DNA of 64,000 nt from Desulfobacterales bacterium (GCA_963674755.2 CAXXVS010000003.1:2368001-2432000), one strand, 5' to 3'. Counted from the first letter of the stretch, positions 12,592-52,474 are shown. Translations and numbers: made by a program. The notes: generated by a model not told the origin, from the letters alone.

Positions 12592-12653
12592 TTTGGAGCG
12601 CTGTCATCGCGGACAAAGGTGCGCTCAAGCCGATTCTGTGGAAAAAGGGACTT

Positions 12654-15695: not shown

Positions 15696-16593
15696 TGATA
15701 GGCCTCCTGAAGACTTTCGGAAGATGCCGCGGCCGCGCGGGGGGCGTTGTCCGCGACTTGCTGTTCCAGAGCCTGTGGGTCCAGCGCATCGCGCAGGGCG
15801 TCGCCAAGCAGGTTGAAGGCCATGACCGTGACGAAAATGGCCAAGCCCGGAACCATAATCAGCTCCGGATGTGTCCAGACATATTGACGCGCGTCCGCGA
15901 TCATGACGCCCCATTCCGGGGTCGGCGGTCTGACGCCCAGCCCAGAAAGGAAAGGCCCGAGACATGCATCATCATATGGCCGATATCAAGGGTGGCCAGG
16001 ATGGCCAACTGGGCGAAAACCGGGGGCAGAACGTGCCGCACCATCGTCATGAACCTTCCCGTGCCCGAAACCCTTGCCGCGAGTACATGCTTCCGATTTT
16101 TCAAGGCCAATACCAGACTGCGGATGATGCGTGCGTACCAGGCCCAATGGGTCAGGGACACGGCCAGAATGACATTGACGATTCCTGTCCCCAGCACCCC
16201 GATCATGAACATGGCCAGGATGAAGGTGGGGAAGGTGAGAAATACATCGCAAATGCGCATTAGGGTCGAATCAAAGGCCCCGCCCGCGTATCCCGCCGTG
16301 GCCCCTACGGCAAACCCAAACAACAGGATAACGCCCGCAATGATCGCCACAGCGCCCAGCGAGGTGCGGGCGCCGTAAAGAAGCCGCGACAGCACGTCCC
16401 GTCCGAGGTGATCGCAGCCCAGCGGATGAGCGCGGCTTGGTTCCGCAAACTTATCCGCCAGAGCGATTTCGGTGGGATCATGCGCTGTCAGAAACGGCGC
16501 GCACAGGGCGGACAAGGTCAGGATGAGCACGGCAACAATGGAAAAGGCCACAAGGCCCCGGCGCAGATACCGTTTTAACCCGTTGGGCGTCAT
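15692..16593 (-). pseudogene. nikC: Nickel ABC permease with a 1-bp deletion frameshift near 15941 (real or sequencing error)
   Basis: Frame ends [10 protein letters not shown]. Restoring one base in CTGGG/CTGGGC gives [26 protein letters not shown]..., which continues into ORF 15692-15904. Confidence 0.85.
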
Positions 16594-17539: not shown

Positions 17540-19171
17540 CTATTGCTTTCGCATGGATTCAAAAGGGATCTCATGTTTGGTGGCGCCGAAACCGGTCCCC
17601 TCAAGATTTTCTCGGTGAACCATGATGGCCGTCATATACGAAAGTGGAAGATAGACGGCCTGCTCATGCAGTGTGGTCAGGATGTCGGCATACAGGCGGC
17701 GGCGTTCATCTTCGTTCACGGTCACAAGAACCTTACCGATTTCGGTATCGATAGCGGCCTTCATGGGCAATCCAAGCTGGGCCTGGTAGTCGGCATGGGA
17801 CGGTATGCGCATGGAACTGCAGAAGGAATGCGGATCGTAGGGCGTGCCCCAGGTGTCGCCAAAAATCAGGCCGAATTCACCGCTTTTTTGGCGGCTGTAA
17901 AAAGAGTCGCTTTCCTCTCCGATGAGATTTGCTTTCACCCCGATCTTCTTCAGGTAGCCCTGGAGCACTTCGGCCACTGATTTTTGCAAGGCGTCGTTGC
18001 CTACGAAACACAGATCTATGGCCAGTTCCTTGCCGTCCTTGGCGCGATAGACAGAACCCTTGGACAGAATCCAGCCCGCCCCGTCAAGTAGTCCGGCGGC
18101 TCCTGCCGGGTCATAGGCGAAAGGCGGAAGATCCAGATTGCAGTAGGGCATCGAAGGGGCGAAAATGGCATCGGCTTTTTCCTCCACGCCCAAGAAAATG
18201 TGATCCACCAACGCCTTTTTATCCACTGCGTGCAGGATCGCTTTGCGCACGGCGATTTCATTCGTGGGAAAACGGTTGGTGTTGAGGGCCAGGGCGCGAG
18301 TGGCCAGCGGCTGGGAGACAGCCGTGACAATGTCCTTCATCTCCCGGTAGCGTTCGAAGGTGTCCAGACCGATCTGTCCCGCACCGTGCCCGCCCGATCC
18401 GTAGATAAGATCGATTTCCCCTGTGTCGAAAGCCACTGCCCTGGCATTGGCATCCGGGATGACCTTGACGACGAGATGCTTCATCTTGGGTTTCTCACCC
18501 CAATAACGGTCATTGCGTTCGAAGACGTCGTACTCGCCCTTCACCATCTCGGTGACCTTCCAGGGGCCGGTGCCAATGGGAGCCTTGATGCCCTTGCTCG
18601 TGTCACCGTCGTCAGGGAAGGCCGCGGGGGCTAGGAAGCGGACCGGACGAACCAACGCGAGTTCTTGCAGAATGGGGTAATACGCATCCTTCAATGTCAA
18701 TTTCACGGTGTATTCATCGATGATGCGCACGGCCTCCCCCCCTGCAGCATCAACCGCATGAAGCTGATTGACAAGCTCCAACCAGTGGTGCCTTTCGTGG
18801 TTCTTGAGAACCGCGTCGAAATTCAACTTTACGGCCTGGGCGTTAAACGGCGTTCCGTCGGAAAAGGTTACACCTTTGCGAAGGTTGAAATTGTACTCCC
18901 GGCCATCCTCGCTGACGGTCCAGGACGCGGCAAGCCAGGGTGCCACTGAGCCGTCGGCCTGGTATTTTACCAGTGGTTCGTAAACCAAGGCTTGGGCGAA
19001 CATCTGGCTCGGGGAATAGAGATGGGGGTTAAGGGGTCCTACATTGCTCGACCAGGAGTAGACGAGAACCTGATCACTCTCAGGCGGCGCCGCAAGCGTA
19101 TTGGAGAGAGACAGAGAAACCGAGCAAAAAACCAGAACAAGGCCCAATATAACAAACCGGATATGCTTCAT
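17540..19171 (-). CDS. nikA: Nickel ABC substrate-binding protein
   Basis: Signal peptide; NVGPLNPHLYSPSQMFAQ..VYEPLVKYQADGSV; PYDPHSF..SMRIPSHADYQAQLGL, closely resembling enterobacterial NikA. Confidence 0.92.
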   Translation of the reverse strand: MKHIRFVILGLVLVFCSVSLSLSNTLAAPPESDQVLVYSWSSNVGPLNPHLYSPSQMFAQALVYEPLVKYQADGSVAPWLAASWTVSEDGREYNFNLRKGVTFSDGTPFNAQAVKLNFDAVLKNHERHHWLELVNQLHAVDAAGGEAVRIIDEYTVKLTLKDAYYPILQELALVRPVRFLAPAAFPDDGDTSKGIKAPIGTGPWKVTEMVKGEYDVFERNDRYWGEKPKMKHLVVKVIPDANARAVAFDTGEIDLIYGSGGHGAGQIGLDTFERYREMKDIVTAVSQPLATRALALNTNRFPTNEIAVRKAILHAVDKKALVDHIFLGVEEKADAIFAPSMPYCNLDLPPFAYDPAGAAGLLDGAGWILSKGSVYRAKDGKELAIDLCFVGNDALQKSVAEVLQGYLKKIGVKANLIGEESDSFYSRQKSGEFGLIFGDTWGTPYDPHSFCSSMRIPSHADYQAQLGLPMKAAIDTEIGKVLVTVNEDERRRLYADILTTLHEQAVYLPLSYMTAIMVHRENLEGTGFGATKHEIPFESMRKQ

Positions 19172-19227
19172 CTTACACCCCTCTTTTGTTAGGACGCATT
19201 CGTGCAAGAAGGATTCGCTTCGCGGGC

Positions 19228-19284
19228 AAAAAAAAAACCACGAAGGTCATCCCCATTTGGGTTTGGTGGACCTTCGTGGCCTTG
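19228..19284 (-). promoter_or_regulatory. Leader attenuator with GCCACGAAGG motif (nikA)
   Basis: Minus strand GGCCACGAAGGTC..GACCTTCGTGG-T10, ending ~55 nt before the nikA start. Confidence 0.75.
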
Positions 19285-19549
19285 GCTGCTATAAATTTTA
19301 CCCGTTGCTAATCGGTAGCAAAGGCAGGTGATCGACAAATCTTGGTTTTAAAACTGAGTGCAAAACCACCGGCTTCAGCCGTATTTAGATCGCTGTTATT
19401 AAACGAAGACCTCATTCGATGTCAATCTTTTTATAGGGATGCCATCCAAGCTGAAGGCCCCCTTATGATGAGGACAATCGCGCCCTCTTTGGGAGGCTAT
19501 CTGATGTTGTCCCCTGTGCGGAAGCGCCGCTCTTACAGCCGGCACGTCA

Positions 19550-20095
19550 TCAAGGACCTTCCAGATCCCGGTGGATTTGCAGGAGCCAGTCCGGGAAGCG
19601 TGGATTCTCCACACCGTGATAGGACTCGACATAGGGCTTGATATCGATCAGGGGACTGCCGTCCACCGCCTCCAGCCCTTTTACTTTGAGGATATGCCCT
19701 TCCCGCGCCAGCAGGGGCACGGTGGACACCAGGACCGGGTTGGGCCGGGCCGGACTGCGGGTGGCGAAGATGCCCTGGAGGGGCAGGTCCTTGCGTCCCA
19801 TGGGATGCACCTGGCGCAGATTCCTGCGTTCAGGGTCGATCAGGTGGGGCCAATAGAGCACCAGGATGTGGGAAAAGGCTTCGATGCCGTCCAGCAATTC
19901 GCGCCAGGGCTCGAAGATCACCAGCTCGCTGGCCGTGTTCTTGACCTGTTGGTGGTGTTCGCGAATCTTGTCCAGGCGTTCCCGAAGTTCGATATCCGAT
20001 TCACCGGCCTGCAACATGGGCGCTTTGATGGGACTGCGCACCTTCCCCACGGGGGTGAGCTGCAGGGGCAATGGCTTGTCTGACATATCGTTCAT
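19550..20095 (-). CDS. TrmO/TsaA (YaeB)-like SAM-binding methyltransferase
   Basis: GIEAFSHILVLYW, GIFATRSPARPNP, GLEAVDGSPLIDIKPY. Confidence 0.85.
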   Translation of the reverse strand: MNDMSDKPLPLQLTPVGKVRSPIKAPMLQAGESDIELRERLDKIREHHQQVKNTASELVIFEPWRELLDGIEAFSHILVLYWPHLIDPERRNLRQVHPMGRKDLPLQGIFATRSPARPNPVLVSTVPLLAREGHILKVKGLEAVDGSPLIDIKPYVESYHGVENPRFPDWLLQIHRDLEGP

Positions 20096-20910
20096 TGGCC
20101 CTGTGCCCCCCTCTCTTTACGCTTCCCGGTCAGCAGCGCATCGGAAATTCCCTCAAGCGCTGCGGATGCCGGTGCGACACTTACCGATCTCCCCTCGAGA
20201 CCGGCCGCCTGGATGGTCTCCTGATACCCGACCGCGCCGATTACCCGGACATCATGGTCGCACAGGCGCTCCACGACCTTTTGCTTCTGCGTGTCCGAAG
20301 TGATTTTGTTGAGGACCGCCCCGGCAAAGGCCGCGCCCGAAGATTGCGTCAGATCCATCACTTTCTCCGCCAGCGTGATGGATTCCAGGGACGGCTCGAC
20401 CACACAGATGACCCCGTCCACACTGGTTTCAACCCCCCGGCCGAAATGCTCGAGACCGGCCTCCATGTCCACGAGCATGACTTCCCCGGCCGCCAGTTCG
20501 AATTTTTTCAGAAATTCGCGCGTCACGGTGCCCATGGGACAGGCGCAGCCCTCCAGGGCCTGATGGATTTTGCCCGTCGAAATCAGTTTCAATCCATCCC
20601 GGACGGCCATGTAGTCGGACGGCATGGAGCGGCTGGTGATTTTTTCGGTTTCCCAGATAGACATGGACGGTTCATCATCCCCCTTGGAGAAGCGGGCGAT
20701 CATTTTCTTCTGGACCGCCTTCTTGCCGCCAATGAAATCCATCAGGGGCTGAGGAGATTCTTCAAAACCGAGCATCCAGGCCAGACTGGTATTCGATTCG
20801 TCGGAATCCAGGACGATGACCTCCCGGCCCCGGTCCTTGAACATTTGTGCAAGCATGCACACAACCGTGCTTTTCCCGCTGCCGCCTTTGCCGCAAACGC
20901 ATAGTTTCAT
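20092..20910 (-). CDS. cooC: CooC/AcsF-type nickel-insertion ATPase
   Basis: GKGGSGKST deviant Walker A; GCAC metal motif; DMEAGLEHFGRG. Confidence 0.85.
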   Translation of the reverse strand: MKLCVCGKGGSGKSTVVCMLAQMFKDRGREVIVLDSDESNTSLAWMLGFEESPQPLMDFIGGKKAVQKKMIARFSKGDDEPSMSIWETEKITSRSMPSDYMAVRDGLKLISTGKIHQALEGCACPMGTVTREFLKKFELAAGEVMLVDMEAGLEHFGRGVETSVDGVICVVEPSLESITLAEKVMDLTQSSGAAFAGAVLNKITSDTQKQKVVERLCDHDVRVIGAVGYQETIQAAGLEGRSVSVAPASAALEGISDALLTGKRKERGAQGQ

Positions 20911-20966
20911 CGTTTCTCCCTTGTTGAAGTTAAATCGTGTCGATAACGCCGCTTGTCAGTAGCATT

Positions 20967-21158
20967 TCAATCGGTTTCGAAGATGATTTTGTGATCTCCC
21001 AGATTCAATGCTTTGATGCGGCCCCTGAGCATTTTCTGGTCGCCGAAGATGCCGACTATCCGCCAATGTTCGTCATCCTGCGGTTCCAGAATATCCACGG
21101 ACGCCATGATGAGTTCTTCCCGCCCATCGTTGATCCGGTATACGTCAGCTTCACACAT
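20967..21158 (-). CDS. cooT: CooT-family nickel-binding protein
   Basis: 63 aa; MCEA N-terminus (Cys2), IM.SVD, IFGDQK, HKI. Confidence 0.85.
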   Translation of the reverse strand: MCEADVYRINDGREELIMASVDILEPQDDEHWRIVGIFGDQKMLRGRIKALNLGDHKIIFETD

Positions 21159-21570
21159 TTTCGATGGCCTCCCTTGTCATTTGGATAGATGTTTCCATCA
21201 TTTGTTGGAAGGATTCGTTTGCCAAACCAAGGATAAAGACGTTTTCCTGGGCCAGCGGAAGAAGGATTTTCCTGGCGGTACTGGCCATGACGGCTTCCGC
21301 CATTTGGGGGGCGATCTCTCCCATCATGGCATTGGCCCAGGTGATGCCAACAGGGCCGATGATGCAATCCGCCTGGGAAACGGTTCGACAGATCGCCTCC
21401 TCACCGGACACTACCTTGTTGGCGCCCGCCTTATGCATCTGGGCCGTGGCAATGGCATTGGCACCCAAACCGATAAGTTCGATGCTTTCGCCGTAAATGG
21501 CTTTCAAACTCTTGATCATGGCCGCACCGATACCGCCGCCCTGGCCGTCGATCACGCAAACACATTTCAA
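21151..21570 (-). CDS. DUF3842-family protein
   Basis: VIDGQGGGIG, GANAIAT..M.KAGA...SGE.A, NAMMGEI.P.MAEAV; TTG start with GGAGG RBS. Confidence 0.8.
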   Translation of the reverse strand: MKCVCVIDGQGGGIGAAMIKSLKAIYGESIELIGLGANAIATAQMHKAGANKVVSGEEAICRTVSQADCIIGPVGITWANAMMGEIAPQMAEAVMASTARKILLPLAQENVFILGLANESFQQMMETSIQMTREAIENV

Positions 21571-21600
21571 GCGTCCGTCCTCCCTCCATTCTCAACTCAG

Positions 21601-21722
21601 AAAATAAAAAAGCCACGCGCTTCTGGGATTCCTATAGGGAACCATCAGCCTTCGTGGCTTAATCTGCCTTTTGCGGCAGTAAATTATACGTCAACTTTAT
21701 CGACTTGGTTTCCTTTTGTCAA
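21601..21722 (-). promoter_or_regulatory. Sigma70 promoter plus leader attenuator with GCCACGAAGG (DUF3842-cooT-cooC operon)
   Basis: TTGACA(21722-21717)-17 bp-TAAAGT; hairpin CTGCC-GCAAAA-GGCAG; then AAGCCACGAAGGCT..AGCGCGTGGC-TTTTTT. Confidence 0.75.
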
Positions 21723-21992
21723 TCCGTCTCCTATCGAGGTTTTCCGTCTGACGGCAACACTTCGTCCCATCGAATGGGATGCATTCCGGTTTTGTTAATG
21801 AGATATCCAAAAAATTGGAAGATTTCGGTTGAACATTGTCCGATAGTGCGTTATCTATCGATCCTAACAGGCGAGGACGAATCTGCCCGCTTTTTTCTGA
21901 CTTTTTCCAGAAGTAAAAACCTCCGTCGGATCGAAATCCGAGATTTTCCGCTTTTTCTAGTTTTACCGCCTGGTATCCATTTTGTTACCATT

Positions 21993-22071
21993 GGTTTGAT
22001 CATAAACCGGCCACGAAGGCTTTGGCGCTTGCCCACAGACGGACAGGCGGTCGAGGCCTTTTTTTATGTGG
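21993..22071 (+). promoter_or_regulatory. Leader attenuator with GCCACGAAGG (DUF4198 operon)
   Basis: GGTTT-GATCAT-AAACC hairpin, motif at 22010-22019, stem AAGGCTTTGGC/GTCGAGGCCTT, T-tract at 22059-22065. Confidence 0.7.
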
Positions 22072-22124
22072 AGTTTCATCTGTTATCTCTTTTTCATAGG
22101 GGAACGTCTGAAAGGAGCAAGATC

Positions 22125-22898
22125 ATGCAGAGAAAAATGATTGTTTTGATGATTGCGGTATTGGCTGTGGGCATGGCGGTGCAGGTGACCTGGGCCCACG
22201 AATTCATCGTCCAACCTGTTCAACTGGCCGCTTCGGTTGGTCACAAGCTTCCATTGAGTGTCGTTTCGGCGCATGTTTTCGTGGTCAGCGAAGAAATGGA
22301 ACCCATAGAGCAGGTCGATTTGGCCCTGGTTAAAGGCGACACCCGGGAGAAGGTTTCCCTGGTGCCCAATGAAATGCTGCTGACCCTTGACGGCGCTGTC
22401 GAATTGAAACAGCAAGGTACCTATGTCCTGGCCGGACATCGCAAGGGCATCCTTTGGACTCATACCACCAAAGGCTGGCAACAGGCCGGGAAAAAGGGGC
22501 TGCAGGGCGTCATCTCGAGCGGGAAGTACGAAAAATTTTGTAAAACCCTGGTCGTCTCGGGTCAAGCCGACGATGGCTACAAGAAGGTGGTGGGAGACCG
22601 CCTGGAAATCGTGCCGATCGATGACCCCCAAAAGGTGGCGGTGGGTCAAGATCTTAACGTTCAGATTTTATTCGATGGCAAGCCGATGCCAACCGAGGTC
22701 TATGCCACCTACGACGGTTTTACCACGGTACCGAACACCTATGCCTATTTCACGGAGACCGATGAAAACGGCCGAGCCCGTATCCGGCTTACCCATGACG
22801 GTACTTGGATGGTGCGTGTCCAACACAAAGTGAACGAAGCGACGGATGACTATGACCAGTATATATTGCGGGCCGTGCTTGTTTTCGGTGTGCGCTGA
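22125..22898 (+). CDS. DUF4198 periplasmic protein (Ni/Co uptake-associated, NikK-like)
   Basis: Signal peptide ending TWA-HEF (mature N-terminal His); YEKFCKTL, LEIVP..P, TDENG.A.I.....G.W; AAGGAG RBS. Confidence 0.8.
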   Translation: MQRKMIVLMIAVLAVGMAVQVTWAHEFIVQPVQLAASVGHKLPLSVVSAHVFVVSEEMEPIEQVDLALVKGDTREKVSLVPNEMLLTLDGAVELKQQGTYVLAGHRKGILWTHTTKGWQQAGKKGLQGVISSGKYEKFCKTLVVSGQADDGYKKVVGDRLEIVPIDDPQKVAVGQDLNVQILFDGKPMPTEVYATYDGFTTVPNTYAYFTETDENGRARIRLTHDGTWMVRVQHKVNEATDDYDQYILRAVLVFGVR

Positions 22899-23383
22899 TG
22901 ACGTTTGACATCCGATTCGCCTGTCTGTCGGCCGTGTTCGGGATTCTTCTTGGCGGATCATCCGCTTGTTGGGGGCACGGTACCGGCTACCGCCTTTTGG
23001 AAAACACGGCCGATGTGGCCATGGAGTTCCGCTATTCTTCGGGGGAACCCATGGCCTATGCCGAGGTGTTAATCTGGCACCCTGAGGACACGAAAATAGA
23101 ATATCAAAACGGACGTACGGACAGGCTCGGGCGATTCGCTTTTTTGCCGAATGCTCCGGGTAACTGGAAAGTAGTCGTCAAGGATGGCATGGGACATCAG
23201 GTCACCGCTAACTGCCCGGTCGATACGGCTTCGCCGGCGGGACCTTCACCGGAATCCCGCGCAACGGGGGCGCCGCCGCCGAGAGTCCCGGGTGCACTTT
23301 TAGGACTCAGCCTATTGGCGAATATGACTTTCTGTATCGCGATCGTGCGCCGTTTCCGGAAACTACGCACCCGCAAAGCGTAA
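22898..23383 (+). CDS. NikL/CbiL-like membrane-anchored periplasmic protein
   Basis: Signal peptide then HG; YSSGEPMAYAEV, QNGRTD..GRFAF.P...G.W.V...DGMGH; C-terminal TM helix. Confidence 0.7.
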   Translation: MTFDIRFACLSAVFGILLGGSSACWGHGTGYRLLENTADVAMEFRYSSGEPMAYAEVLIWHPEDTKIEYQNGRTDRLGRFAFLPNAPGNWKVVVKDGMGHQVTANCPVDTASPAGPSPESRATGAPPPRVPGALLGLSLLANMTFCIAIVRRFRKLRTRKA

Positions 23384-23390
23384 TTCCCCA

Positions 23391-23421
23391 TACCGCCGGT
23401 TGACATGAAAACCGGCGGTAT
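23391..23421. terminator. Hairpin between convergent genes
   Basis: taccgccggtt..aaccggcggta inverted repeat. Confidence 0.55.
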
Positions 23422-23482
23422 CTCTATCTTCAAGACAATCAGGGAAGAGAGTGACCATTGCCCGGGAAGTGGCGCAATGATG

Positions 23483-24262
23483 TCATGCCTCGGTCAATTT
23501 TTCTGCCATAGGACGCAAAACCGTTTCCAAAGTTTGCGAGATGCGTTTGGCCTCGGCCTCCGATCCGGCAAATCCGATCCAGCAGTCCCAAATCTCGTCT
23601 TCGTCTTGCCAGCATTGACCGTTGGGCTTTAAGCGATCCGGGTGCCCGCAGTTTTCCAGCACGCGGTAGAACAGCATGATCTTCCGGACGAGATCGTCTT
23701 CGGTATCCTCGCCGCCCTTTTCTTGGTAGATGGGCAGCATGCCGTCTTCCAAACTCGGTAGCACCGTTCGCCTGAAATCGAACAGCAGGCGGGGCAGAGC
23801 CGCGTTGACCCAGTCGCTGTTGCGGCTTGCCAGATCCCGGCAATAGCTGCTTTGGCATTCCGCGTACACCCGATCGAGCTTGGCGGCCAGTGCTTCCTGT
23901 TCGGTGCCGCTGTTTTCAAGATTCCCCAGGAAGCCGTCGCGCCATTGGCGAAAATCGGCGATGATGGCTTTGGCGGCCGCCGCATCTTTCACTTGGCGGA
24001 CAAAGGCTTTCTCATCCAGATCGAGGGTATACGACAACGCCACCGTTATTTCCTGGCGTTGATACGAAGCGCCGCCGCCCGGTGCCACGAGAAACGCACA
24101 CTGCATCTTTACATGCTGCGCGGCGTTGACAAGCAGCCGGAATCCACCGTTGACGGAGACCAGCGGACGGCTATTAAACCGACCGCGATCGTTCAGATCG
24201 AACACACTGGGTGTTTTGTATTTGGGCTGATGCAACACATAGAATCCTTTCGGTACCTGCAT
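23483..24262 (-). CDS. Hypothetical protein (259 aa)
   Basis: AAGGAG RBS before ATG at 24262; co-directional with the upstream FmdE gene; no motif recognised. Confidence 0.65.
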   Translation of the reverse strand: MQVPKGFYVLHQPKYKTPSVFDLNDRGRFNSRPLVSVNGGFRLLVNAAQHVKMQCAFLVAPGGGASYQRQEITVALSYTLDLDEKAFVRQVKDAAAAKAIIADFRQWRDGFLGNLENSGTEQEALAAKLDRVYAECQSSYCRDLASRNSDWVNAALPRLLFDFRRTVLPSLEDGMLPIYQEKGGEDTEDDLVRKIMLFYRVLENCGHPDRLKPNGQCWQDEDEIWDCWIGFAGSEAEAKRISQTLETVLRPMAEKLTEA

Positions 24263-24330
24263 GGGTTTTTTCTCCTTTTTGCAAACAAGTGATATTTGGC
24301 ATCTGGCCGCCGACCGGTGCCGACCGGCAT

Positions 24331-25296
24331 TCAATGCAAACGATACCGCCGACCGTCGGTTTTGAGCTGTTGAAAACACGGGGTACAATAGGCCTTGCGG
24401 TCATATTCGACGGCATGCGACTGTAACATCTGCTCGCGGCAGGCCGCGCATTGACGGTAGATGCCGGCTGCTTCGGCATGGGGCGGAAACGGAGCAACGG
24501 GTTGCACGGTATAGAGTTCTTCCGGTTTTCGGGAGAGCAAAAAGGCCACGCGATGGTCCAGGAGATGCTGAAATTGCACAACCTCCTCCATCACAGGCCG
24601 CTCTTCCGCAATGCTGACGGCCAGACGGTGGTATTCGTCCGCATCGTCAAAGGTCTGAGGCCGCAGGGAAAACCGTAAAGCAAGGTCGGCGCCTGTGACG
24701 ACCAGCGTATAGACATGCTTGCCATAATCCACGATCCGCAAGCGTTGGTTGCCCATGGTCGCGCCGAGCAGGATCTGAATGGCGTCCAGGGCGGATGTGC
24801 TGTTTTCGGCCACGATCGACAGGCTCCGGTCAAGCGTTCCGGCTTTTGAAAGGAGACGGTGGGCGTACTCGCAAAATTTGCCGCCGATGACCAGATCCGG
24901 ACAGATGTGACCGTGGAAGTCCACCACACGCTTGAATGTCATGTTAACCAGCATTTTCCGGTCCTCCCGATACCATGTCATCAGTTCGTGATCGTGCCAT
25001 ATCCGAAACCCCAACACCCAGAATCCCTTGGGCCGCGGCGGTGAAGGGGGCATCTCGCAAAACTGGAAATACAGGAAATAGAGTTCGCCTTCGGTATCGA
25101 CAATCAGGTACGCATTAAGGGGCTGCTTCCGGCCCGTTCGGAAGCGGCCTACAACGCGCGTCACTCGGTGCGTCGTGTCCTTGAAACGGAAGGAAAGCGG
25201 CTGCTGTCGCAGGATGTCGAAGTGCACCGCTATCTTTTCCTGAATAGGATCGAGCAGCTCGTCGTAGATCGAACGCAATGCTTCCGCAGGTGTCAC
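24331..25296 (-). CDS. FmdE-family protein with extra N-terminal domain and C-terminal zinc finger
   Basis: FHGHICP.L..G, DAIQ..LG.T.GN, CAAC..CTPC; ~110-aa N-terminal extension. Confidence 0.8.
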   Translation of the reverse strand: MTPAEALRSIYDELLDPIQEKIAVHFDILRQQPLSFRFKDTTHRVTRVVGRFRTGRKQPLNAYLIVDTEGELYFLYFQFCEMPPSPPRPKGFWVLGFRIWHDHELMTWYREDRKMLVNMTFKRVVDFHGHICPDLVIGGKFCEYAHRLLSKAGTLDRSLSIVAENSTSALDAIQILLGATMGNQRLRIVDYGKHVYTLVVTGADLALRFSLRPQTFDDADEYHRLAVSIAEERPVMEEVVQFQHLLDHRVAFLLSRKPEELYTVQPVAPFPPHAEAAGIYRQCAACREQMLQSHAVEYDRKAYCTPCFQQLKTDGRRYRLH

Positions 25297-25312
25297 GGAT
25301 GCCGGTCTCCTT

Positions 25313-27448
25313 TCAAAAGACGATTTTCCAGAGACATGCCAATGATCGTCCTGGTTCGCTCAATTCGACCCCCCGTGATGTGGAGAGGAAATTGACATAG
25401 TCTTCATCCAGCAGGTTTTTCGCGGCCAGGGCAATTTCCTGACGGAGACCGGCAATTTCGAAGCGATATCCGGCATACAAATTGACAGTCTGCCAGCTTT
25501 GACCCTCGGTGACATCGTCCGGCACGTCGTGCTGGGCCGCGGCCCAATCCATTGCGAGATCGGCCCAGAAACCGGTATCACCGGCGGCTTGGTAGCGCAG
25601 CCCCAGGCAGCCGTTCAAGGGGGCGATAAAGGGCAGCGGTTCATCGGTGGTGCGATTGCGTCCCTGGGTCCAGGCCACATTGCCATAAAGTTCCCAGGTT
25701 GTTGCCAGGAACCATTGGGCCTCAAGTTCGACGCCATAAATGACAGCGCGGTCCACATTGGCCATTTGGCGCGCGGCCGGACGGAGTTCTTTTTCCGTAA
25801 TGAGGTCTTTGAGAAAATTGGCATAGGCGGCGGCGGAAACATGCAGCGGTGTCGTGTCATAATGCAGGCCGCCTTCGAAAAAGAAAGACCGTTCGGGATC
25901 GAGCTCGGGATTACCGTACAGCTCGATCCCGCCGCCAAGGTTGATGTATTTGAAGCGGTCCATGAGATCCGGCGCGCGATAGCTGGAGGCGGCGATCAGC
26001 GTTGCCGCCCAGGGCGCGGCAACATGCCAGGTCAGCCCCAGATGCGCCTGCCAGCTGACATCGCTCTGGGTCTGCCCTTCACGCTTGAGGATCGGCGTCA
26101 GGGCCGGGTTGGGCGGATCGATCCAGTCGTAGAGGTCGTCGCTGCGGGATTCGATATAATCGATCCGCCCGCCGATATTCAGATTCAGCGTTTCAGTGGC
26201 CTGCCAGTCGTCTTCCATAAAAAGGCCGCCGGTGTCCTGGGAAACGTTCCCCAGGGAACTGTCGATGCCGGTCAGGCCGTTTTTGAAATTCCGGACCCGC
26301 TCGGTGTTGTCAATGCCCCAATAGCCGTAATCAAGACCAACGACGGTGGTGTTGTGTGCCCATTGCAAGCGGTTGGACCATTTCAGGCCCAGGGTCTGGT
26401 GATCGGCCCCCGGCTTCAGCGATTGCAACGGTGACGACGCCGGAAACGCATCCAGCAAAACTTGCCGCTGGATCTCCTGGAAATAGAGTTTGAGCTGGGA
26501 TTCCGTGATCACGGAACCGGTTGGCTCCACGGTATGGGTCAGGGCACACAGGGTGCGGTTGATGCGGGAATAGGTGGCGTCCGGTCCCTCCGGCAGCGAG
26601 AGGCCCTTGCCGGGAATGCCGATATCGTTCCCCTGGGCATACTGGACATCGAGTTCCGTCTGGTGGTGTGCGTTCCACTGATAGGCCCCGCTGAGATGGC
26701 CGTGTTCGTCGCGGTACTGGCTGTTGGGCACTTCCTGGTGGTCGGCCCCTTCCCGATCACCGTAATCACGGTAGCTGCCCGAGCCGAAGATCCAATAGCG
26801 CTCGGATGCCACGGCGGCGTTGGCATAGATGCCGGCCCCCGAGGGATTGTCGCCGTAGTGGGCGATAGCTTCACCCGTGCCTTCCGCCTCTGGAGCGAAA
26901 CGGCCTTTTTTGGTGATCACGTTCACCACCCCACCGATGGAGCCGGACCCGTAAAGGGCGCTGATGGGTCCCTTGAGCACCTCGATGCGCTCGATATCGT
27001 AAGGGTTGACCAGCCCGAACTGGGCGTTGATATCCGTCGCCGTATTGACACGGCAGCCGTCAATCAAAAAGACGACGCTGTTGCGGCCCATCCCCCGGAT
27101 GTTGATACCGGCCCCCCAGGGCGAATCCGAAGCTTTCTCCACCCCGGGGATGCGCCGGGTGATATCCGTGATGGTTTCGGGCTGGACCTCCTCGATTTCT
27201 TCCGCCGTGACCACTCCGATACCGCCCGGTGTAAGGGAAATCGGTATCGCTGTGCCGCGGGCGGTGACCACCATGGGCGCGAGATCGACTTGGGGCTCCG
27301 CCGGCGTCTGCGCATCGGCCTGGCTGTGGCAGGCCGGCCACAGCAGGAGCATTCCCGCCATGCCAAGGCTTCCCAGACGGCGCGCAAGGCCCTTGATTCC
27401 ATACAGAAACTGCGGTCTGCCGTGCCCAAGCCGATAACGCCCGATCAT
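25313..27448 (-). CDS. TonB-dependent outer-membrane receptor
   Basis: MVVTA TonB box; IERIEVLKGPISALYGSGSIGGVVN plug motif; NPELDPERS; C-terminal Phe. Confidence 0.92.
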   Translation of the reverse strand: MIGRYRLGHGRPQFLYGIKGLARRLGSLGMAGMLLLWPACHSQADAQTPAEPQVDLAPMVVTARGTAIPISLTPGGIGVVTAEEIEEVQPETITDITRRIPGVEKASDSPWGAGINIRGMGRNSVVFLIDGCRVNTATDINAQFGLVNPYDIERIEVLKGPISALYGSGSIGGVVNVITKKGRFAPEAEGTGEAIAHYGDNPSGAGIYANAAVASERYWIFGSGSYRDYGDREGADHQEVPNSQYRDEHGHLSGAYQWNAHHQTELDVQYAQGNDIGIPGKGLSLPEGPDATYSRINRTLCALTHTVEPTGSVITESQLKLYFQEIQRQVLLDAFPASSPLQSLKPGADHQTLGLKWSNRLQWAHNTTVVGLDYGYWGIDNTERVRNFKNGLTGIDSSLGNVSQDTGGLFMEDDWQATETLNLNIGGRIDYIESRSDDLYDWIDPPNPALTPILKREGQTQSDVSWQAHLGLTWHVAAPWAATLIAASSYRAPDLMDRFKYINLGGGIELYGNPELDPERSFFFEGGLHYDTTPLHVSAAAYANFLKDLITEKELRPAARQMANVDRAVIYGVELEAQWFLATTWELYGNVAWTQGRNRTTDEPLPFIAPLNGCLGLRYQAAGDTGFWADLAMDWAAAQHDVPDDVTEGQSWQTVNLYAGYRFEIAGLRQEIALAAKNLLDEDYVNFLSTSRGVELSEPGRSLACLWKIVF

Positions 27449-27469
27449 GCGGTCGTTTCCTTTCCCATA

Positions 27470-27712
27470 TTATAACAAGCCGGTTTTAATGCGCACTTCG
27501 GGCAGGGAGCCCAACTGTCCCGCCAGGGCGCCCACCTCGTCGGTGGTGGCCTCGATGGCCAGGGTGATTAGCGTCAGGTTTTGCGCCTGTAAGGGAACGG
27601 CCATGCGCCCGATGATCAAGCGTTCATGGAGCGCTAATGTCTTCTGCAGTTCGGGCAGGTGGCGCATCGGGTGGCGCACCAGGAGACCGATGAAGCCGAT
27701 TCTTTTCTCCAT
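27470..27712 (-). CDS. TM1266-family [FeFe]-hydrogenase-associated small protein (ACT/NikR C-terminal-like)
   Basis: MEKRIGFIG..IIGRM.VP..I.L.IEATTDEVGAL.G.LG.LP.V.IK (80 aa). Confidence 0.8.
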   Translation of the reverse strand: MEKRIGFIGLLVRHPMRHLPELQKTLALHERLIIGRMAVPLQAQNLTLITLAIEATTDEVGALAGQLGSLPEVRIKTGLL

Positions 27713-27912
27713 GGGACGTTCTACTTTCCACAGGGTCGAACGTATCCGCACGTCCGGCTTGCGCTGTCCGCTGGCGCCGGCGGCGGGCATAACAATACGA
27801 ACGCGCCGCATAGGGATGACCGGCGCGTATTGAAAGCTCCGGCCCTGAGGTTCAGAAGAACTCCTTCCCGCAGGCCAGAGGGGGTGATGAAACGATGGAT
27901 GGAGGAAATGAT

Positions 27913-28257
27913 CTATACGGCCAGTTCGACCCCCTTGGATTTCAGGTTCTGAATGCTGGCACTGCGATCGACATAGTGGGTATGGAGCAGGTGGTGCGAC
28001 ATGTGGCCGCAGGGCCCGTCATGCAGGAAGCCGTCCTTATCATCATAGAGTTTCTGGACCATGGGATTGTCCTGGGATTTGCGGATTTTGTAGACATTGG
28101 CGTCGGCCTTATAGACGGACTCCTGGCGCTGTCCCACGAAATCGGGTTCATCGGCCAGAACCGGCCGGGCCAGGGGAAAACCGACCGCCGCATATCCGGC
28201 TGCGATGCCAGCCGCTTTGATGAAGCCGCGGCGTGATAGTAACAATTGTTCGCTCAT
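27913..28257 (-). CDS. hydB: Periplasmic [FeFe]-hydrogenase small subunit (Tat signal)
   Basis: SRRGFIK twin-arginine motif; R...VY..D....IRKSQDNP...KLY...P....SHHLLHT.Y.DR. Confidence 0.92.
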   Translation of the reverse strand: MSEQLLLSRRGFIKAAGIAAGYAAVGFPLARPVLADEPDFVGQRQESVYKADANVYKIRKSQDNPMVQKLYDDKDGFLHDGPCGHMSHHLLHTHYVDRSASIQNLKSKGVELAV

Positions 28258-28271
28258 AAGGTTCCTCCCTT

Positions 28272-29525
28272 TCATCCTGCGTGGCGCATGGTTAGCCGTT
28301 TGTTTATCGCCAGGACCCCGTTGCGGAGCAGTGACGCCGAGCGTACATTGGGATCGAGCGGCTGCCCGCCGCCATTGACGCAGCCCCCCGGGCAGGCCAT
28401 GATTTCAATGAAGTGATAAGGGGATTTGCCTGTGCGCACCTCGTTGCAGAGCTGGGCGGCATTCGCGAGGCCGCTGGCCACCGCCACCTTGACGGTGCCG
28501 AAGCCCGGAACCGGGATGTCGGTGGCGTTGATGCCCTCATGGGTGCGTACCACCTTGATGTCGGGGTCGGACAGTTTTTGCTTGGAGAGAACTTCATAGG
28601 CCAGACGCAGGGCGGCTTCCATAACCCCGCCGCTGTTGCCGAAAATGGTGGCGGCGCCCGTGGACATGCCCAGGGCGGGGTCCGGTTCTCGCTTGGGCAG
28701 GGCCTGGAAGTCGATGCCGGCCGTCTTGATCATGTAAGCCAGTTCGCGGGTATTAATAGTGGCATCGATGTCCTGGAAACCACTGTCCGCCATTTCCGGC
28801 CGCAGCCCTTCGTATTTTTTGGCGATACAGGGCATGATCGAGACGGTGTAGATCTTCTGGGCCGGAATCTCGGTCACTTCGGCACCATAGGTTTTGGCCA
28901 GGGGCCCCAGCATGCCGATGGGCGATTTGCAGGTGGATACATGGGGCAACAGGTCGGGGTAGAAGGATTCCACAAACTTGATCCAGCCCGGACAGCAGGA
29001 TGTGAACTGCGGCAGGGGTTTGGCCTTGTCGGGGTGGCTGATCCGTTCGATCAGTTCGGTGCCTTCCTCCATGATGGTGACATCGGCCGTGAACTCGTTG
29101 TCCCATACATAATCGAACCCCAGCGCTTTCAGGGCGGCATGCATTTGGCCGCCAGCATAGGTGCCGACATCGTATCCGAAGCATTCGGCCAATCCATAGC
29201 GCACGGCCGGGGCTGGCATGGAAACGACGATCGTATTGGGATCCTTCAGTTTGGCGAAGATTTCATCCACATAGCTGACGCCCTCGTAGATCGCTCCATA
29301 GGGGCAGTGGATCAGACATTGGCCGCAGTTCATGCAGGCCGACGGGTTGATCACCTGGCGCGTGCCGTTTTCGTTGATGGGCTGGATAGCGCCGGTGGCA
29401 CAGTGGTTCTCGCATTCCCCGCAGGCTTCACACTTGGTGGCGTCGACCTGGACAAAGAAAATATGATCCGGATCGACTTGCCGCGGCGCATTGGTCGCGT
29501 ACATCACCTTTTCCATTTCTCGCAT
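28272..29525 (-). CDS. hydA: [FeFe]-hydrogenase large subunit, 2[4Fe-4S] plus H-cluster
   Basis: Two CxxCxxCxxxC clusters; TSCCPGW, MPCIAKKYE, EIMACPGGCVNGGGQP; AAGGAGG RBS. Confidence 0.95.
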   Translation of the reverse strand: MREMEKVMYATNAPRQVDPDHIFFVQVDATKCEACGECENHCATGAIQPINENGTRQVINPSACMNCGQCLIHCPYGAIYEGVSYVDEIFAKLKDPNTIVVSMPAPAVRYGLAECFGYDVGTYAGGQMHAALKALGFDYVWDNEFTADVTIMEEGTELIERISHPDKAKPLPQFTSCCPGWIKFVESFYPDLLPHVSTCKSPIGMLGPLAKTYGAEVTEIPAQKIYTVSIMPCIAKKYEGLRPEMADSGFQDIDATINTRELAYMIKTAGIDFQALPKREPDPALGMSTGAATIFGNSGGVMEAALRLAYEVLSKQKLSDPDIKVVRTHEGINATDIPVPGFGTVKVAVASGLANAAQLCNEVRTGKSPYHFIEIMACPGGCVNGGGQPLDPNVRSASLLRNGVLAINKRLTMRHAG

Positions 29526-29597
29526 TCCACATTCCTCCTTTGAGGGGGTTGATGAGTCATCAGGCACAAAGCGTGCCCACATGCTGGCGGTCTCTCT

Positions 29598-30179
29598 TTA
29601 AACCGTCCGGCAACCGTAACGTTTTTCCCAAAGAGTGCTTTCATCCGTCATGATGGGGCGGCAGCTCACGATCCAAAGTGCTTGGCGCAGCAGTCCTTTC
29701 AGGTTGGGGGGGCCGGTAAGCACCTTGCGTGCCGTTTCGAGATGATCCCAAGGATCCAGGACCATCTCGATCTGATCGCACACGCATTTTTTAAGCACGA
29801 CCGCCGCCTCGCCCGGAAGACGGAAGATATTTCCGGCTTCGGTCGCACCGTTGGCGGCATTGACCAACCGGACCTCAATGGGGATCGATTGGTCACCTGC
29901 GCCTAGTTCATCTTGCGGGGCCGGCCTGAGTTCAGGCAGATTGAGCCACCAATTGTAATGGGATGCACTCCATCCGGCGCCGAGGTTGCATAGGAAGAAG
30001 AGAACGCGGTCTTCCACATACACGCCAAACGTCACCCTGCCGTGCCTCAGCGCTGCCACTTCGGCCTCAGCGGGCCGGATGGCCGCTTTGATCAGGGTGT
30101 GCCCCAAGCGCGTATAATTATAATGGGTTCCCGGCTTCAATTCCGTCAGGCCGCTGATGCGGCATTGGCCCTGTGGCAT
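29598..30179 (-). CDS. Hypothetical protein (193 aa), first gene of the hyd unit
   Basis: AGGTGG RBS; fills the gap between the leader and hydA; no motif recognised. Confidence 0.6.
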   Translation of the reverse strand: MPQGQCRISGLTELKPGTHYNYTRLGHTLIKAAIRPAEAEVAALRHGRVTFGVYVEDRVLFFLCNLGAGWSASHYNWWLNLPELRPAPQDELGAGDQSIPIEVRLVNAANGATEAGNIFRLPGEAAVVLKKCVCDQIEMVLDPWDHLETARKVLTGPPNLKGLLRQALWIVSCRPIMTDESTLWEKRYGCRTV

Positions 30180-30246
30180 AAAACCACCTATGCAATGTCA
30201 ACAACGGTTAAAAAGGCGCCTGGAACGCAGGCTTGAGCAGAAATGC

Positions 30247-30298
30247 AAAAGCCACGTCGGCCCGGCACTCAAAAAAACGTGCGGCCTTCGTGGCCTTT
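30247..30298 (-). promoter_or_regulatory. Leader attenuator with GCCACGAAGG (hyd unit)
   Basis: Minus strand AAGGCCACGAAGGCCGCAC..GTGCCGGGCCGACGTGGC-TTTT. Confidence 0.7.
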
Positions 30299-30443
30299 CT
30301 AGATGAAGAGGGAGTAAAACAGGGTTACGAATGAAAGTACCACCATTTCTCTATGGTGGTTGATGTCTTCTACCTGAAAATACTGCTCTTGTAAAGAATT
30401 TCCTTTATAATATTCGCTCTTTTTTGCCGCTGACCGGTGCTCG

Positions 30444-31400
30444 TTATGGTCCGTCGCTGCTGGATGTCCGGTCGAACGGTTCGTCCTCGGGATTGATCTC
30501 GATGGTCAGATGGCTCAAGTGGTGAATCTTACCAAGTCGTTGGCGCAATTGTACGGGGTTTGTGCCGTTCCAGGCGCTTAAGGCCACGATGGCGCTGTAG
30601 GCGCCGGGCCCGACCTGCCAGACATGCAGATCCAGCAGGGCGGCCCCCTCCATGGTAGTCACCACGCGCCGGATTTCTTTCTCGACGTTGCTGGGGCCGC
30701 TGTAATCCAGCAGTATCTTGCCGGTCTCCCGTATGAGGCCGTAGGACCAGCGGCTGATGACGGCGGCCCCCACGATGCCCATGAGCGGGTCCAGAAACGA
30801 CCAGCCCCAGAGCTTGCCGAAGAGCAAAGCCGCGATGGCCAGAATCGACGTCAGGGCGTCGGCCAGGACGTGAATATAGGCGGCCCGCAGGTTGTGGTCG
30901 TGGTGATGATGGTGCTCGTGGCCTTCCGAGGTGTGGCCGTGTCCGTGATCCTCCTTGAGCACCAGGGCGCTGGCCACGTTCACCACCAGGCCGACCACCG
31001 CCACCAGGATGGCTTCGTCGAAGTGGATGGCCACCGGAGCCAGCAGCCGCCGGATAGAGGCGTAGATCATGGAAAGGGCCACCACAGCCAGCAGCAGGGC
31101 GCTGCTGAAGCCGGCCAGCTCCCCGATCTTGCCCGTACCGAAGGAGAAATTGGCGTTGCGGCGGTGCTTGCGGGCCAGGTAATAAGCCAGGGCCGTGATG
31201 CCCAGGGCCGAAGCATGGCTGGCCATGTGCCAGCCGTCGGCCAAAAGGGCCATGGAGCCGAAGATCATCCCGGAGGCGATCTCCACGGTCATGGTGGCCA
31301 GGGTGAGAACGATCACGATCCAGGTGCGCCGTTCGTTGCGGTGCTGGTGTGAGGAAAGGAAATTGTGGTCGTGGGGATAGTTCAGGGGCTCGTTGTGCAT
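30444..31400 (-). CDS. dmeF: CDF-family Co(II)/Ni(II) efflux transporter
   Basis: ERRTWIVI, GSMALLADGWHMASHA, His-rich loop, DHNLRAAYIHVLADALTS. Confidence 0.88.
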   Translation of the reverse strand: MHNEPLNYPHDHNFLSSHQHRNERRTWIVIVLTLATMTVEIASGMIFGSMALLADGWHMASHASALGITALAYYLARKHRRNANFSFGTGKIGELAGFSSALLLAVVALSMIYASIRRLLAPVAIHFDEAILVAVVGLVVNVASALVLKEDHGHGHTSEGHEHHHHHDHNLRAAYIHVLADALTSILAIAALLFGKLWGWSFLDPLMGIVGAAVISRWSYGLIRETGKILLDYSGPSNVEKEIRRVVTTMEGAALLDLHVWQVGPGAYSAIVALSAWNGTNPVQLRQRLGKIHHLSHLTIEINPEDEPFDRTSSSDGP

Positions 31401-31405: not shown

Positions 31406-32038
31406 TTATACAACCCCTGTTTCCAACTGCGTTGTCAACTGTTTGGCCAGCAGGGCGCTGGTCATGGCCAGGCTCTCAGGATCCAGGTAATACTCTGCCT
31501 GACGCCAAAACAAAACCGTGCTGTAAGGGGGAAAATCATCATCTCCGTCGTTGAATAAGAGAAGCAAGGCTATGCGGGGCAGCGCCTGGAACTGCATGAC
31601 CAGGTCATAGGACAGCGTTGAATCACCGCAAACGCCGCCTAGGCGGCGTGCGGCCCGGGATAAGGCCTGCAGGTTGCCGGAAAAAGCCTGGGCTATTTTC
31701 TGCTCCGTGTCACTGGCGAAATAATTGACGTTCGTAAAGTGGGATTCGCGCTTGAAATCCTTGAAAGCGGCCCACTGGGGGTCCTGATGCTCTCGTGCGG
31801 GACAGCGGGCCAGATATTTGGCCATGATGACGAAGGTCGTGTAGCTGGGCGGCTGACGATGCTCATCCCAAATACCCTGGTGGGAAATGGTATAGCGGTG
31901 ATCGAAAAGCGACAGGGTATACTCCTCAGCGTGTGATTCCAGACCCAGGATGGGTGCGATCCGTTCGAGATCGAGCACCGCCAGGCTGTTCATATACTCC
32001 CCGTAATGCGTTTCGAATATATCCCCCGAGCGCGTCAT
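31406..32038 (-). CDS. DUF3786-family protein
   Basis: W..FKDF, F.ALPRI.L.L.F.DGDDDFP....VLF...A..YLD.ESL. Confidence 0.8.
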   Translation of the reverse strand: MTRSGDIFETHYGEYMNSLAVLDLERIAPILGLESHAEEYTLSLFDHRYTISHQGIWDEHRQPPSYTTFVIMAKYLARCPAREHQDPQWAAFKDFKRESHFTNVNYFASDTEQKIAQAFSGNLQALSRAARRLGGVCGDSTLSYDLVMQFQALPRIALLLLFNDGDDDFPPYSTVLFWRQAEYYLDPESLAMTSALLAKQLTTQLETGVV

Positions 32039-52425: not shown

Positions 52426-52474
52426 CGGTCACCTCCTCCAATCGGCTACCCGTCCCTCCGCTCGCCGGCGCCCC

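Follow-up and report, generated by a model that had tools for sequence, protein, structure and literature searches.

To our knowledge, the only regulators described for bacterial nickel uptake are DNA-binding proteins, NikR and its analogues among them, and we know of a single described RNA element tied to nickel and cobalt homeostasis, the NiCo (czcD) riboswitch. That riboswitch controls exporters, has a four-way-junction aptamer of about 90 nucleotides (nt) and is ON in the presence of the metal. Here we describe a leader element from a stretch of 64,000 nt of a Desulfobacterales bacterium (GCA_963674755.2, CAXXVS010000003.1:2368001-2432000, the window throughout this text), in which the 10-mer GCCACGAAGG opens a terminator hairpin and which, in contrast to the NiCo riboswitch, precedes importers. 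We report its anatomy, conservation, strand specificity and gene associations, together with its co-distribution with DUF3842, CooT and NikR, and these indicate that the leader is probably a new RNA-level nickel switch.

Three described systems come closest. In the delta-proteobacteria, the NikR regulon comprises nikKMLQO and the periplasmic Fe-only hydrogenase hydAB, and excess nickel is predicted to repress this nickel-independent isoenzyme (passages on these bacteria in Rodionov 2004, PMC545781). The genes behind the leader resemble that regulon, being nikKMLQO-type importers and an Fe-only hydrogenase that would presumably be OFF at nickel sufficiency. Unlike the leader, however, NikR binds a DNA inverted repeat of fixed spacing (N13/14) at the promoter, a form that the leader does not have, and NikR_C is missing from 93 of 104 genomes that carry the motif. 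The targets of ANTAR proteins (EutV, NasR and AmiR) are dual hairpins, the second of which lies in the 5' arm of a terminator, where a dimeric protein prevents termination; their loops are hexanucleotides with A1 and G4, and their linker is short and fixed (sections on target RNAs in PMC8934654). Like them, the leader has a small first hairpin upstream, and a second one with a loop of the same type lies within the terminator's 5' arm. Its loops, however, are tetra- or pentaloops of the type (N)NGAA, closed by C-G and without the A1/G4 hexaloop pattern, its hairpins stand mostly 30-50 nt apart (9-118) instead of being joined by a short fixed linker, its signal would be a metal, and no ANTAR protein is implicated here (PF03861 was not searched). 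In the HMP-PP (thiS) riboswitch, finally, the conserved nucleotides sit inside an otherwise classic terminator that is easily taken for a plain one, as in the leader, and the alternative fold keeps the terminator tip P2 while a separate P1 blocks the base of the stem (sections on this class in PMC6478431). Unlike the leader, that class binds a metabolite, is ON with its ligand, has no upstream hairpin, precedes thiamin genes and forms an Rfam-type family, whereas the leader is without a known ligand and the logic required of it is ON without metal. A terminator with a competing hairpin is thus of a known kind; the family, the regulon and the presumed sensor are new.

The element is uncatalogued in Rfam and in the literature searched. 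With Rfam 15 at gathering thresholds, the scan that also covered the leader at 30247-30360, the whole window returned only three cobalamin riboswitches, none of them at the leaders, and a search of 19100-22200 at E <= 10 added only a terminator-only echo of Pseudomon-1 (E 9.7). The NiCo riboswitch had no covariance match in the window (gathering thresholds) or in 19100-22200 (E <= 10), and HMP-PP/thiS had none in 19100-22200 at E <= 10, the downstream genes being nickel-related and not thiamin genes. An earlier note on this DNA, made from the sequence alone, had not recognised the motif as the NiCo riboswitch or the ANTAR hexaloop, and both the lack of an Rfam match and the loops of 4-5 nt with GAA at the 3' end bear this out. 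In the full-text literature no description of the element was found: the 10-mer and its complement appeared in primers only and DUF3842 in one unrelated paper, and searches for 'nickel riboswitch/antitermination' and for nickel with RNA motif and DUF4198, nikK or cbiM gave no relevant description. The main text of two Breaker-lab genome surveys has no 'nickel', 'cbiM' or 'TonB', and about half of the text of a 2024 metallostasis review, which mentions Mn- and Ni/Co-sensing riboswitches, has no 'riboswitch candidate', 'nickel transport' or 'CooT'. The look of a plain terminator, shared with the HMP-PP class, may be why motif surveys overlooked the leader.

The leader family and its genes

Exact copies of GCCACGAAGG lie at 19271-19280 (-), 21649-21658 (-), 22010-22019 (+) and 30285-30294 (-), where the earlier note had placed them, and each is the start of a hairpin that is followed by a T-tract. 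The minimum free energies (MFE) of the four hairpins lie between -23.1 and -28.3 kcal/mol, and comparison with dinucleotide shuffles gives them z-scores between -3.2 and -4.9. Counted by hand, the T-tract ends 58 nt before the start codon in nikA, 36 in the cooT unit, 61 in DUF4198 and 68 in the hyd unit, so that the distance of about 40-70 nt claimed at first becomes 36-68 nt; the gene names given at that time were confirmed by Pfam. The bare 10-mer is not rare: base composition predicts about 21 exact copies for the 6.7-Mb genome, which has 43, and when one mismatch at most is allowed the window has 13 copies where 6.8 are expected. The composite of 10-mer, hairpin and T-tract is rare: it occurs at six of the 43 genome copies, and all six are in 5' leaders. 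The two leaders outside the window stand at C1:65735, before a DUF4198-CbiM unit, and at C1:782030, before a second DUF3842-CooT unit. A covariance model trained on 95 family members recovers exactly these six leaders from the genome, on the sense strand and with 35-49 bits (150 of 3148 first-look candidates scored), and the units behind them are all nickel-related, namely NikA, two DUF4198/NikK, two DUF3842-CooT and one Fe-only hydrogenase/TonB-receptor unit.

Elsewhere in the genome, exact copies of the 10-mer and of its complement are coding-looking or belong to an unrelated tandem repeat of 9 nt. The repeat itself consists of tandem units NCACGAAGRN, present two to three times at about 35 genome sites outside the window (for example C1:250440(+)/250507(-), C1:816310/816420, C3:1474222/1474339 and C3:1587348) and often arranged as inverted pairs 60-110 nt apart, which resemble the ends of miniature transposable elements. 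Three more copies of the 10-mer, exact or with one mismatch, sit in this 9-nt CACGAAG repeat, which has the CACGAAG core of the leader motif but is a separate element. In the window, at about 52470-52534 (-), there is a terminator-like hairpin in front of T6 that starts with GCCGAGAAGG, which differs from the motif at two positions, and whose 3' arm, CTCGGCC, is compensated; it is absent from the hits of the covariance model. A simple terminator scan overlooks the leader hairpins because their loops are above the loop limit of the scan.

The pattern GCCACGAAGG-N15-55-TTTTT, searched in the host genome and 40 relatives from 25 families of the order, was present in 35 of these 41 close genomes, far above a reversed control. 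Of 401 genomes drawn from the phylum as a whole, 104 contained a strict version, to which GTGG-N0-3-TTTT was added, and 5 (counted by hand) contained its reversed control. A scan of 185,579 species genomes (596 Gb), for which about a thousand chance matches were estimated and whose list of taxa is a sample, gave, among the matches listed, hairpin-type copies whose record titles point to Desulfobacterales, Syntrophaceae, Desulfarculaceae and Desulfobacca and, outside the phylum, to Nitrospirota, NC10, Clostridia/Oscillospiraceae, Gemmiger and Eubacterium; of 82 matches examined, 14 form no hairpin. Where a genome lacks the exact motif, diverged leader forms can still stand before DUF3842: among 40 such genes a few had them, for example GGCCUCGGAAG with a compensated 3' arm, so that counts of the exact pattern are too low for the family. 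The leader is a conserved and widespread family and not a chance repeat.

The genes that follow it were surveyed behind 50 hairpin-type elements of the genome and its relatives (two non-folding ones dropped), taking the first three downstream open reading frames (ORFs) and Pfam. About 15 elements precede DUF4198(+CbiM), about 10 DUF3842-CooT and about 12 TonB receptor/ExbBD/DUF3450 units, and there are six before Peripla_BP_2-FecCD, two before NikA (SBP_bac_5) and one before CbiM-CbiQ. Altogether 47 of the 50 stand before Ni/Co importers, TonB/ExbBD systems or DUF3842-CooT, a figure made up of 45 by Pfam and two DUF3842 genes overlooked by the ORF picker, the remaining three elements lying on truncated contigs. 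In other phyla the first ORF is CbiM (L133, L120), PDGLE (L146), a TonB Plug domain (L151), ExbB (L145), SBP_bac_5 (L171, L141), BPD_transp_1 (L170) or FecCD (L174), and there are less obvious cases: two methyltransferases, an Fe-ADH and a CMD-family protein. TonB/ExbBD and outer-membrane receptors reportedly also occur in the NikR context in Helicobacter, going by titles in reference lists. The gene content supports the view that the regulon of the leader mirrors the gene classes of the published NikR regulons.

Anatomy of the leader

The anatomy was read from 94 distinct elements picked by the exact 10-mer (95 sequences for the pairing counts). The consensus is A-R-GCCACGAAGG-Y, a variable inner hairpin, Y-U-C-G-U-G-G-C and U5-9, with a total hairpin length of 35-50 nt, an arm spacing that varies by about 15 nt, and U in 88-100% at the first four positions past the stem; a G+C-rich hairpin with a direct U-tract, which is the form of an intrinsic terminator, is found in the window hairpins and family-wide. 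The 3' arms, at first taken to be unrelated between copies, have YCGUGGC in common in three of the four window copies, and the family consensus there is Y-U-C-G-U-G-G-C-U5-9. Pairs 1-7 of the outer stem are formed in 81-100% of the 95 sequences, and both arms of this 7-bp stem are conserved in sequence, with almost no compensatory changes. Beyond the stem, A8 is paired in 45 of 95, G9 in 72 and G10 in 68. When an anchor that leaves positions 7-10 free was used (GCCACG...CGTGGYTTTT), AAGG was carried by 35 of 52 among the matches listed. With AAGG frequent under the free anchor and A8 unpaired in about half of the sequences, AAGG is kept beyond the needs of pairing, in agreement with the early claim that pairing does not explain the conservation of the motif.

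A feature absent from the earlier note is a hairpin upstream of the motif with a loop ending in GAA, which is present in 68 of the 94 leaders (shuffled sequences yield about 23, the reverse complement 25) and is closed by a C-G pair in 47 of the 68. The loops found are UGAA, AGAA, CGAA, AAGAA, AUGAA, AGGAA and ACGAA, that is, 4-5 nt with GAA at the 3' end. From the end of this hairpin to the motif there are mostly 30-50 nt (range 9-118), over an A/U-rich and unconserved linker. In the 52 leaders where a promoter-like match was found, the motif begins at a median of 64.5 nt past the -10 box. For 36 of them the GAA-loop hairpin could be placed as well; it begins at a median of 13 nt past the box, which would put it right at the start of the transcript. 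The short leader of about 30 nt described for the cooT copy (TTGACA-17-TAAAGT) stands for that copy and does not extend to most leaders. Loops of the same kind recur further down: the inner hairpin has a loop NGAA closed by C-G in 33 of 94 elements, and GAAG occurs in the inner part of 48 of 94.

The motif itself can fold as a mini-hairpin, GCC[ACGAA]GGY, whose loop ACGAA closed by C-G is of the same type as those of the upstream and inner hairpins. This competing fold, already proposed in the earlier note, gains support from the pyrimidine, C or U, that 91 of 94 elements have at position 11, and from position -1, which pairs with +12 in 60 of 94 against 43.8 in shuffles, none of 2000 shuffles reaching 60 (a covariation uncorrected for the relatedness of the sequences); neighbouring register shifts gave no excess of pairing in the same 94 elements. 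The diverged leader L259 has a terminator whose arms are compensated and, overlapping its 5' arm, a different hairpin, GGCCC-AGAA-GGGCC; this suggests that the logic is retained though the sequence has changed. No cis antiterminator was found upstream: the mean duplex energy was -8.9 kcal/mol for the 5' arm against -8.6 in shuffled sequences, and -9.3 against -9.0 kcal/mol for the 3' arm. When whole leaders are folded, 91 of 94 have the terminator as their MFE structure, and together these two results imply that termination would be the default and that read-through would need something from outside the leader. Some leaders have tandem full motif-terminator units about 200-450 nt apart (L020 G022:C49, L101 G084:C5 and L186), and one (L146) has two CCACGAAGG copies inside a single hairpin.

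The element is oriented with the gene. An ORF of at least 100 amino acids (aa) follows on the same strand within 200 nt past the T-tract in 47 of 50 elements, whereas nine of 50 have one on their opposite side that points away from the element. The T-tract invariably lies towards the gene.

Proposed mechanism and its rivals

On balance we favour, at slightly better than even confidence, the interpretation that the leader is a factor-dependent attenuator, which would gate the nickel-acquisition regulon at transcription elongation and replace NikR, with DUF3842, possibly together with CooT, as the best candidate for the factor. The nickel response, the antitermination mode and the identity of the factor are what we infer from the sequences. 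The transcript would begin a few bases before the hairpin with the C-(N)NGAA-G loop and continue through an A/U-rich linker of about 35 nt into A-R-GCCACGAAGG-Y. In the OFF state, which would be the default and thermodynamically favoured one, A-R-GCCACGAAGG-Y would pair with Y-U-C-G-U-G-G-C to form the intrinsic terminator; in the ON state, the mini-hairpin R-GCC[ACGAA]GGY-Y, of 3-4 bp, would show the same GAA loop and leave the 3' arm free, allowing read-through. When nickel is scarce, a multivalent trans factor would bind the GAA-loop hairpins (the 5' one, the mini-hairpin and often the inner one) and hold the mini-hairpin, so that the base of the terminator could not close and the polymerase would continue, while at nickel sufficiency the nickel-bound factor would release the RNA and transcription would end in the leader. 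The trans-acting nature of the factor is suggested by the lack of an upstream antiterminator. As far as computation reaches, the protein-dependent antitermination layout to which the earlier note had likened the leader is supported by that lack, by the presence of the element in NikR-less genomes and by the NikR-like regulon.

As to what reads the leader, in the 401 phylum genomes CooT is present in 244, namely in 102 of the 104 that bear the motif (read from lists) and 142 of the 297 without it; DUF3842 is present in 153 (96 of 104 and 57 of 297), and NikR_C in 190 (11 of 104, two of these with doubtful motif matches, and 179 of 297). NikR_C occurs in 15 of the 153 genomes with DUF3842 against 175 of the 248 without it, and the family-level tallies agree. 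It is also absent from the whole host genome, so that the earlier remark that the window has no NikR gene extends to the entire genome. DUF3842 is found in 35 of the 41 close genomes, and three near-complete genomes that do not have it (G019, G028 and G030) are without a hairpin-type motif; in other phyla it is found in 7 of 10 motif-bearing genomes and 0 of 14 control genomes. Homologues of DUF3842 number more than 7000, Desulfococcus multivorans being among the names; the sequence keeps an invariant D-G-Q-G-G-G-I-G together with two cysteines and one histidine that are conserved, and an alignment-based model with a mean confidence score (pLDDT) of 80 gives a five-stranded Rossmann-like fold (a single-sequence AlphaFold2 model, pLDDT 37, was not used); a sequence search of the PDB with DUF3842 gave no match. 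Its gene is translationally coupled to that of CooT, which matches the solved CooT structure PDB 6fan with E 5e-9. The fold of CooT is said to have been described as Sm-like by Timm and colleagues in 2017. In Rhodospirillum rubrum CooT is a dimer that binds one nickel per dimer through Cys2, with a Kd of 9 nM, and its function is described as unclear (PMC6006190, parts on metal binding and function). DUF3842, perhaps with CooT, is the best candidate reader that the genome comparisons offer. We put forward only tentatively, as a possibility that we judge less likely true than false, the fuller proposal that DUF3842, alone or with the nickel-binding dimer CooT, would be a nickel-sensing RNA-binding antiterminator that recognises C-(N)NGAA-G loops and replaces NikR in many anaerobes (Desulfobacterota, Nitrospirota, NC10 and Clostridia). 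The TM1266-like (NikR_C-like) gene of the hyd unit was also considered as the reader and rejected, being present in 2 of 41 relatives.

Several observations weigh against the attenuator and against DUF3842 as its reader. Most of the 40 DUF3842 genes examined where the exact motif is missing from the genome have no leader upstream, which indicates that DUF3842 is not always self-regulated; four of the 40 follow directly after the apparent end of an aminoacyl-tRNA synthetase gene (by eye), and four loci in genomes of other phyla gave the same picture upstream of DUF3842. The TonB- and FecCD-type importers could move other metals or chelates. The mini-hairpin is short, at 3-4 bp, and for conservation inside the 10-mer the free-anchor search is the sole evidence, the sample having been selected by the 10-mer. 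Fisher tests on the co-distribution ignore phylogeny and overstate its significance, and three draft genomes break the pattern: in G103 (95% complete) and G279 (90% complete) the motif and CooT occur without DUF3842, and in G382 (97% complete) the motif and DUF3842 occur without CooT. Because the DUF3842-CooT units themselves carry the leader, co-distribution would look alike for a reader and for a gene that is simply a constant part of the regulon. Lastly, the nearest PDB folds of DUF3842 are generic (UbiX-like flavoproteins, dehydrogenases and universal stress protein), and none of these fold matches offers a precedent for RNA binding.

The main rival to the factor-dependent attenuator is a protein-free riboswitch embedded in the terminator, in which the RNA alone would sense Ni2+ or a molecule reporting nickel status and shift the balance between mini-hairpin and terminator, as in HMP-PP (thiS); we regard it as rather unlikely. 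It would share its layout with that class, in which the conserved nucleotides lie in a classic terminator with an alternative P1 and with P2 as the terminator tip (same sections of PMC6478431), and both the spread of the element over several phyla and the fact that neither DUF3842 nor CooT occurs in every motif-bearing genome would suit a sensor made of RNA. We nevertheless rate it lower, since uptake must be ON without metal, yet the ligand-free RNA is a strong terminator (the MFE structure in 91 of 94 leaders) with an antiterminator of only 3-4 bp, and since the few conserved positions, the loops of the same type on separate hairpins and the unconserved linker of 30-50 nt suit a multivalent binder; moreover, a riboswitch would not need the negative association with NikR or the positive one with DUF3842.

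Much less credible is a trans-acting RNA, either a small RNA or a tRNA able to base-pair to the GAA loops or to GCCA/UGGC, that would open the terminator or be titrated by the leader. The three or more GAAG copies per leader could indeed pair with one CUUC-bearing partner, and the 3' UGGC and 5' GCCA recall the pairing of a T-box with the acceptor end of a tRNA; yet no candidate emerged, the other genome copies of the 10-mer or its complement being coding-looking or part of the unrelated tandem repeat, no Rfam family matches, and the links to DUF3842 and NikR would stay unexplained. The T-box-like reading in particular (GAA as a Glu codon, UGGC against GCCA) was set aside as improbable with several GAA loops per leader.

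The inverted repeat GCCACGA...TCGTGGC might instead be a DNA operator bound by an unnamed nickel repressor, the hairpin being incidental, which we hold to be highly improbable. Both arms of the 7-bp stem are conserved in sequence with almost no compensatory change, as an operator would have it, and NikR-type sites are inverted repeats, but with a fixed N13/14 (site descriptions in PMC545781), while the arm spacing of the leader varies by about 15 nt. The T-tract always on the gene side, the orientation of 47 of 50 elements with the gene, the position about 65 nt downstream of a promoter-like site and the DUF4198 copy, which still scores 43 bits without the 3' half-site (its canonical 3' arm), argue together that the element is not a palindromic DNA operator, and neither the asymmetric AAGG nor the upstream GAA-loop hairpins would be accounted for.

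That the leaders are ordinary terminators, insulators or a generic repeat, alike by descent and without regulation, is hardly believable, for although terminators are common and the genome has an unrelated tandem CACGAAG repeat family, the composite, its inner sequence varying, is shared by several phyla and more than 25 families and stands almost only before nickel-acquisition genes, the reversed-pattern control is near zero, and the cooT and DUF4198 leaders, being divergently transcribed, cannot end an upstream gene. The K-turn, CsrA (GGA), TRAP and boxB/N were also considered and dropped, since the motif does not appear to fit their consensus.

Window loci and implications

The nikA leader, on the minus strand at 19228-19280, joins the motif (19271-19280) to a terminator hairpin at 19238-19280 (-26.5 kcal/mol, z -4.4, 48.8 bits) and T10 at 19228-19237, and is preceded by the 5' GAA-loop hairpin P0, CGGC-UGAA-GCCG (19370-19381 (-), read from the sequence). 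It is followed by nikA (SBP_bac_5 in Pfam) at 17540-19171 (-), with nikB at 16590-17531 and more ABC genes next. The leader of the cooT unit, also on the minus strand (21606-21658), has the promoter-like TTGACA-17-TAAAGT at 21694-21722 (10 of 12 matches), a small 5' hairpin with an atypical loop, CUGCC-GCAAAA-GGCAG (21664-21679, read from the sequence), the motif at 21649-21658, the terminator hairpin at 21612-21658 (-23.1 kcal/mol, z -3.7, 42.9 bits) and T6 at 21606-21611. Behind it, at 19550-21570 (-), Pfam places DUF3842 (21151-21570), CooT (20967-21158), a CooC-like P-loop NTPase (20092-20910) and a TrmO_N-like protein (19550-20095), the last gene of the unit.

On the plus strand, the DUF4198 leader (22010-22065) carries the 5' hairpin UCGGA-UCGAAA-UCCGA at 21926-21941 (read from the sequence), the motif at 22010-22019, a terminator hairpin that begins inside the motif (-26.2 kcal/mol, z -3.2, 43.4 bits) and T7 at 22059-22065; in this copy GCCAC is unpaired and the canonical 3' arm is missing, while motif and terminator are kept. 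It precedes a DUF4198/NikK-like gene at 22125-22898 and a 161-aa CarboxypepD_reg-like (NikL-like) gene at 22898-23383, both on the plus strand and named by Pfam. The leader of the hyd unit (30247-30294 (-)) comprises the motif at 30285-30294, the terminator hairpin at 30251-30294 (-28.3 kcal/mol, z -4.9, 35.2 bits) and T4 at 30247-30250, downstream of the 5' hairpin ACCACCAU-AGAGAA-AUGGUGGU at 30339-30360 (-), which came from the GAA-loop hairpin scan. Between this terminator and the first start codon there is another small hairpin with a T-tract (GCCUGCGUUCCAGGC, then GCCUUUUU) at 30216-30232 (-). The unit itself, at 23483-30179 (-), consists according to Pfam of a 193-aa gene, HydA and HydB ([FeFe] hydrogenase), a TM1266-like gene (27470-27811 (-)) annotated as a putative iron-only hydrogenase system regulator, a TonB-dependent receptor, an FmdE-like gene and a 301-aa gene, and judging from common strand and spacing it would be one operon.

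Directly upstream of the hyd leader and on the same strand are a CDF cation-efflux gene with a His-rich loop (30444-31400 (-)) and a DUF3786 gene (31406-32038 (-)), so that a metal exporter stands back to back with the uptake genes of the hyd unit. The FmdE-like protein (24331-25296 (-)), which has a C-terminal Cys motif, follows the TonB receptor, and the same pairing is found behind the motif in genome L033; this protein and the TrmO_N-like one may be nickel-related. The three cobalamin riboswitches of the window lie at 12418-12603 (+), 53199-53399 (+) and 56359-56554 (+) (Rfam), and corrinoid/cobalt and nickel traffic appear to be under separate RNA controls here.

If the factor-dependent attenuator is real, an RNA switch placed before importers, chaperones and a nickel-free isoenzyme would add a new layer to metal homeostasis and explain nickel control in NikR-less anaerobes, among them sulfate reducers that need [NiFe] hydrogenase and CO dehydrogenase, and some gut Firmicutes. 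The leader would also serve as a marker for nickel regulons, flagging TonB receptors, FecCD-type ABC systems and FmdE-like and TrmO-like proteins as nickel-related. It offers a testable function for DUF3842 and perhaps for CooT, whose part in the maturation of CO dehydrogenase is unclear and which would thereby gain a regulatory role; should DUF3842 be the reader, it would be the first metalloregulator of metal uptake to act on nascent RNA.

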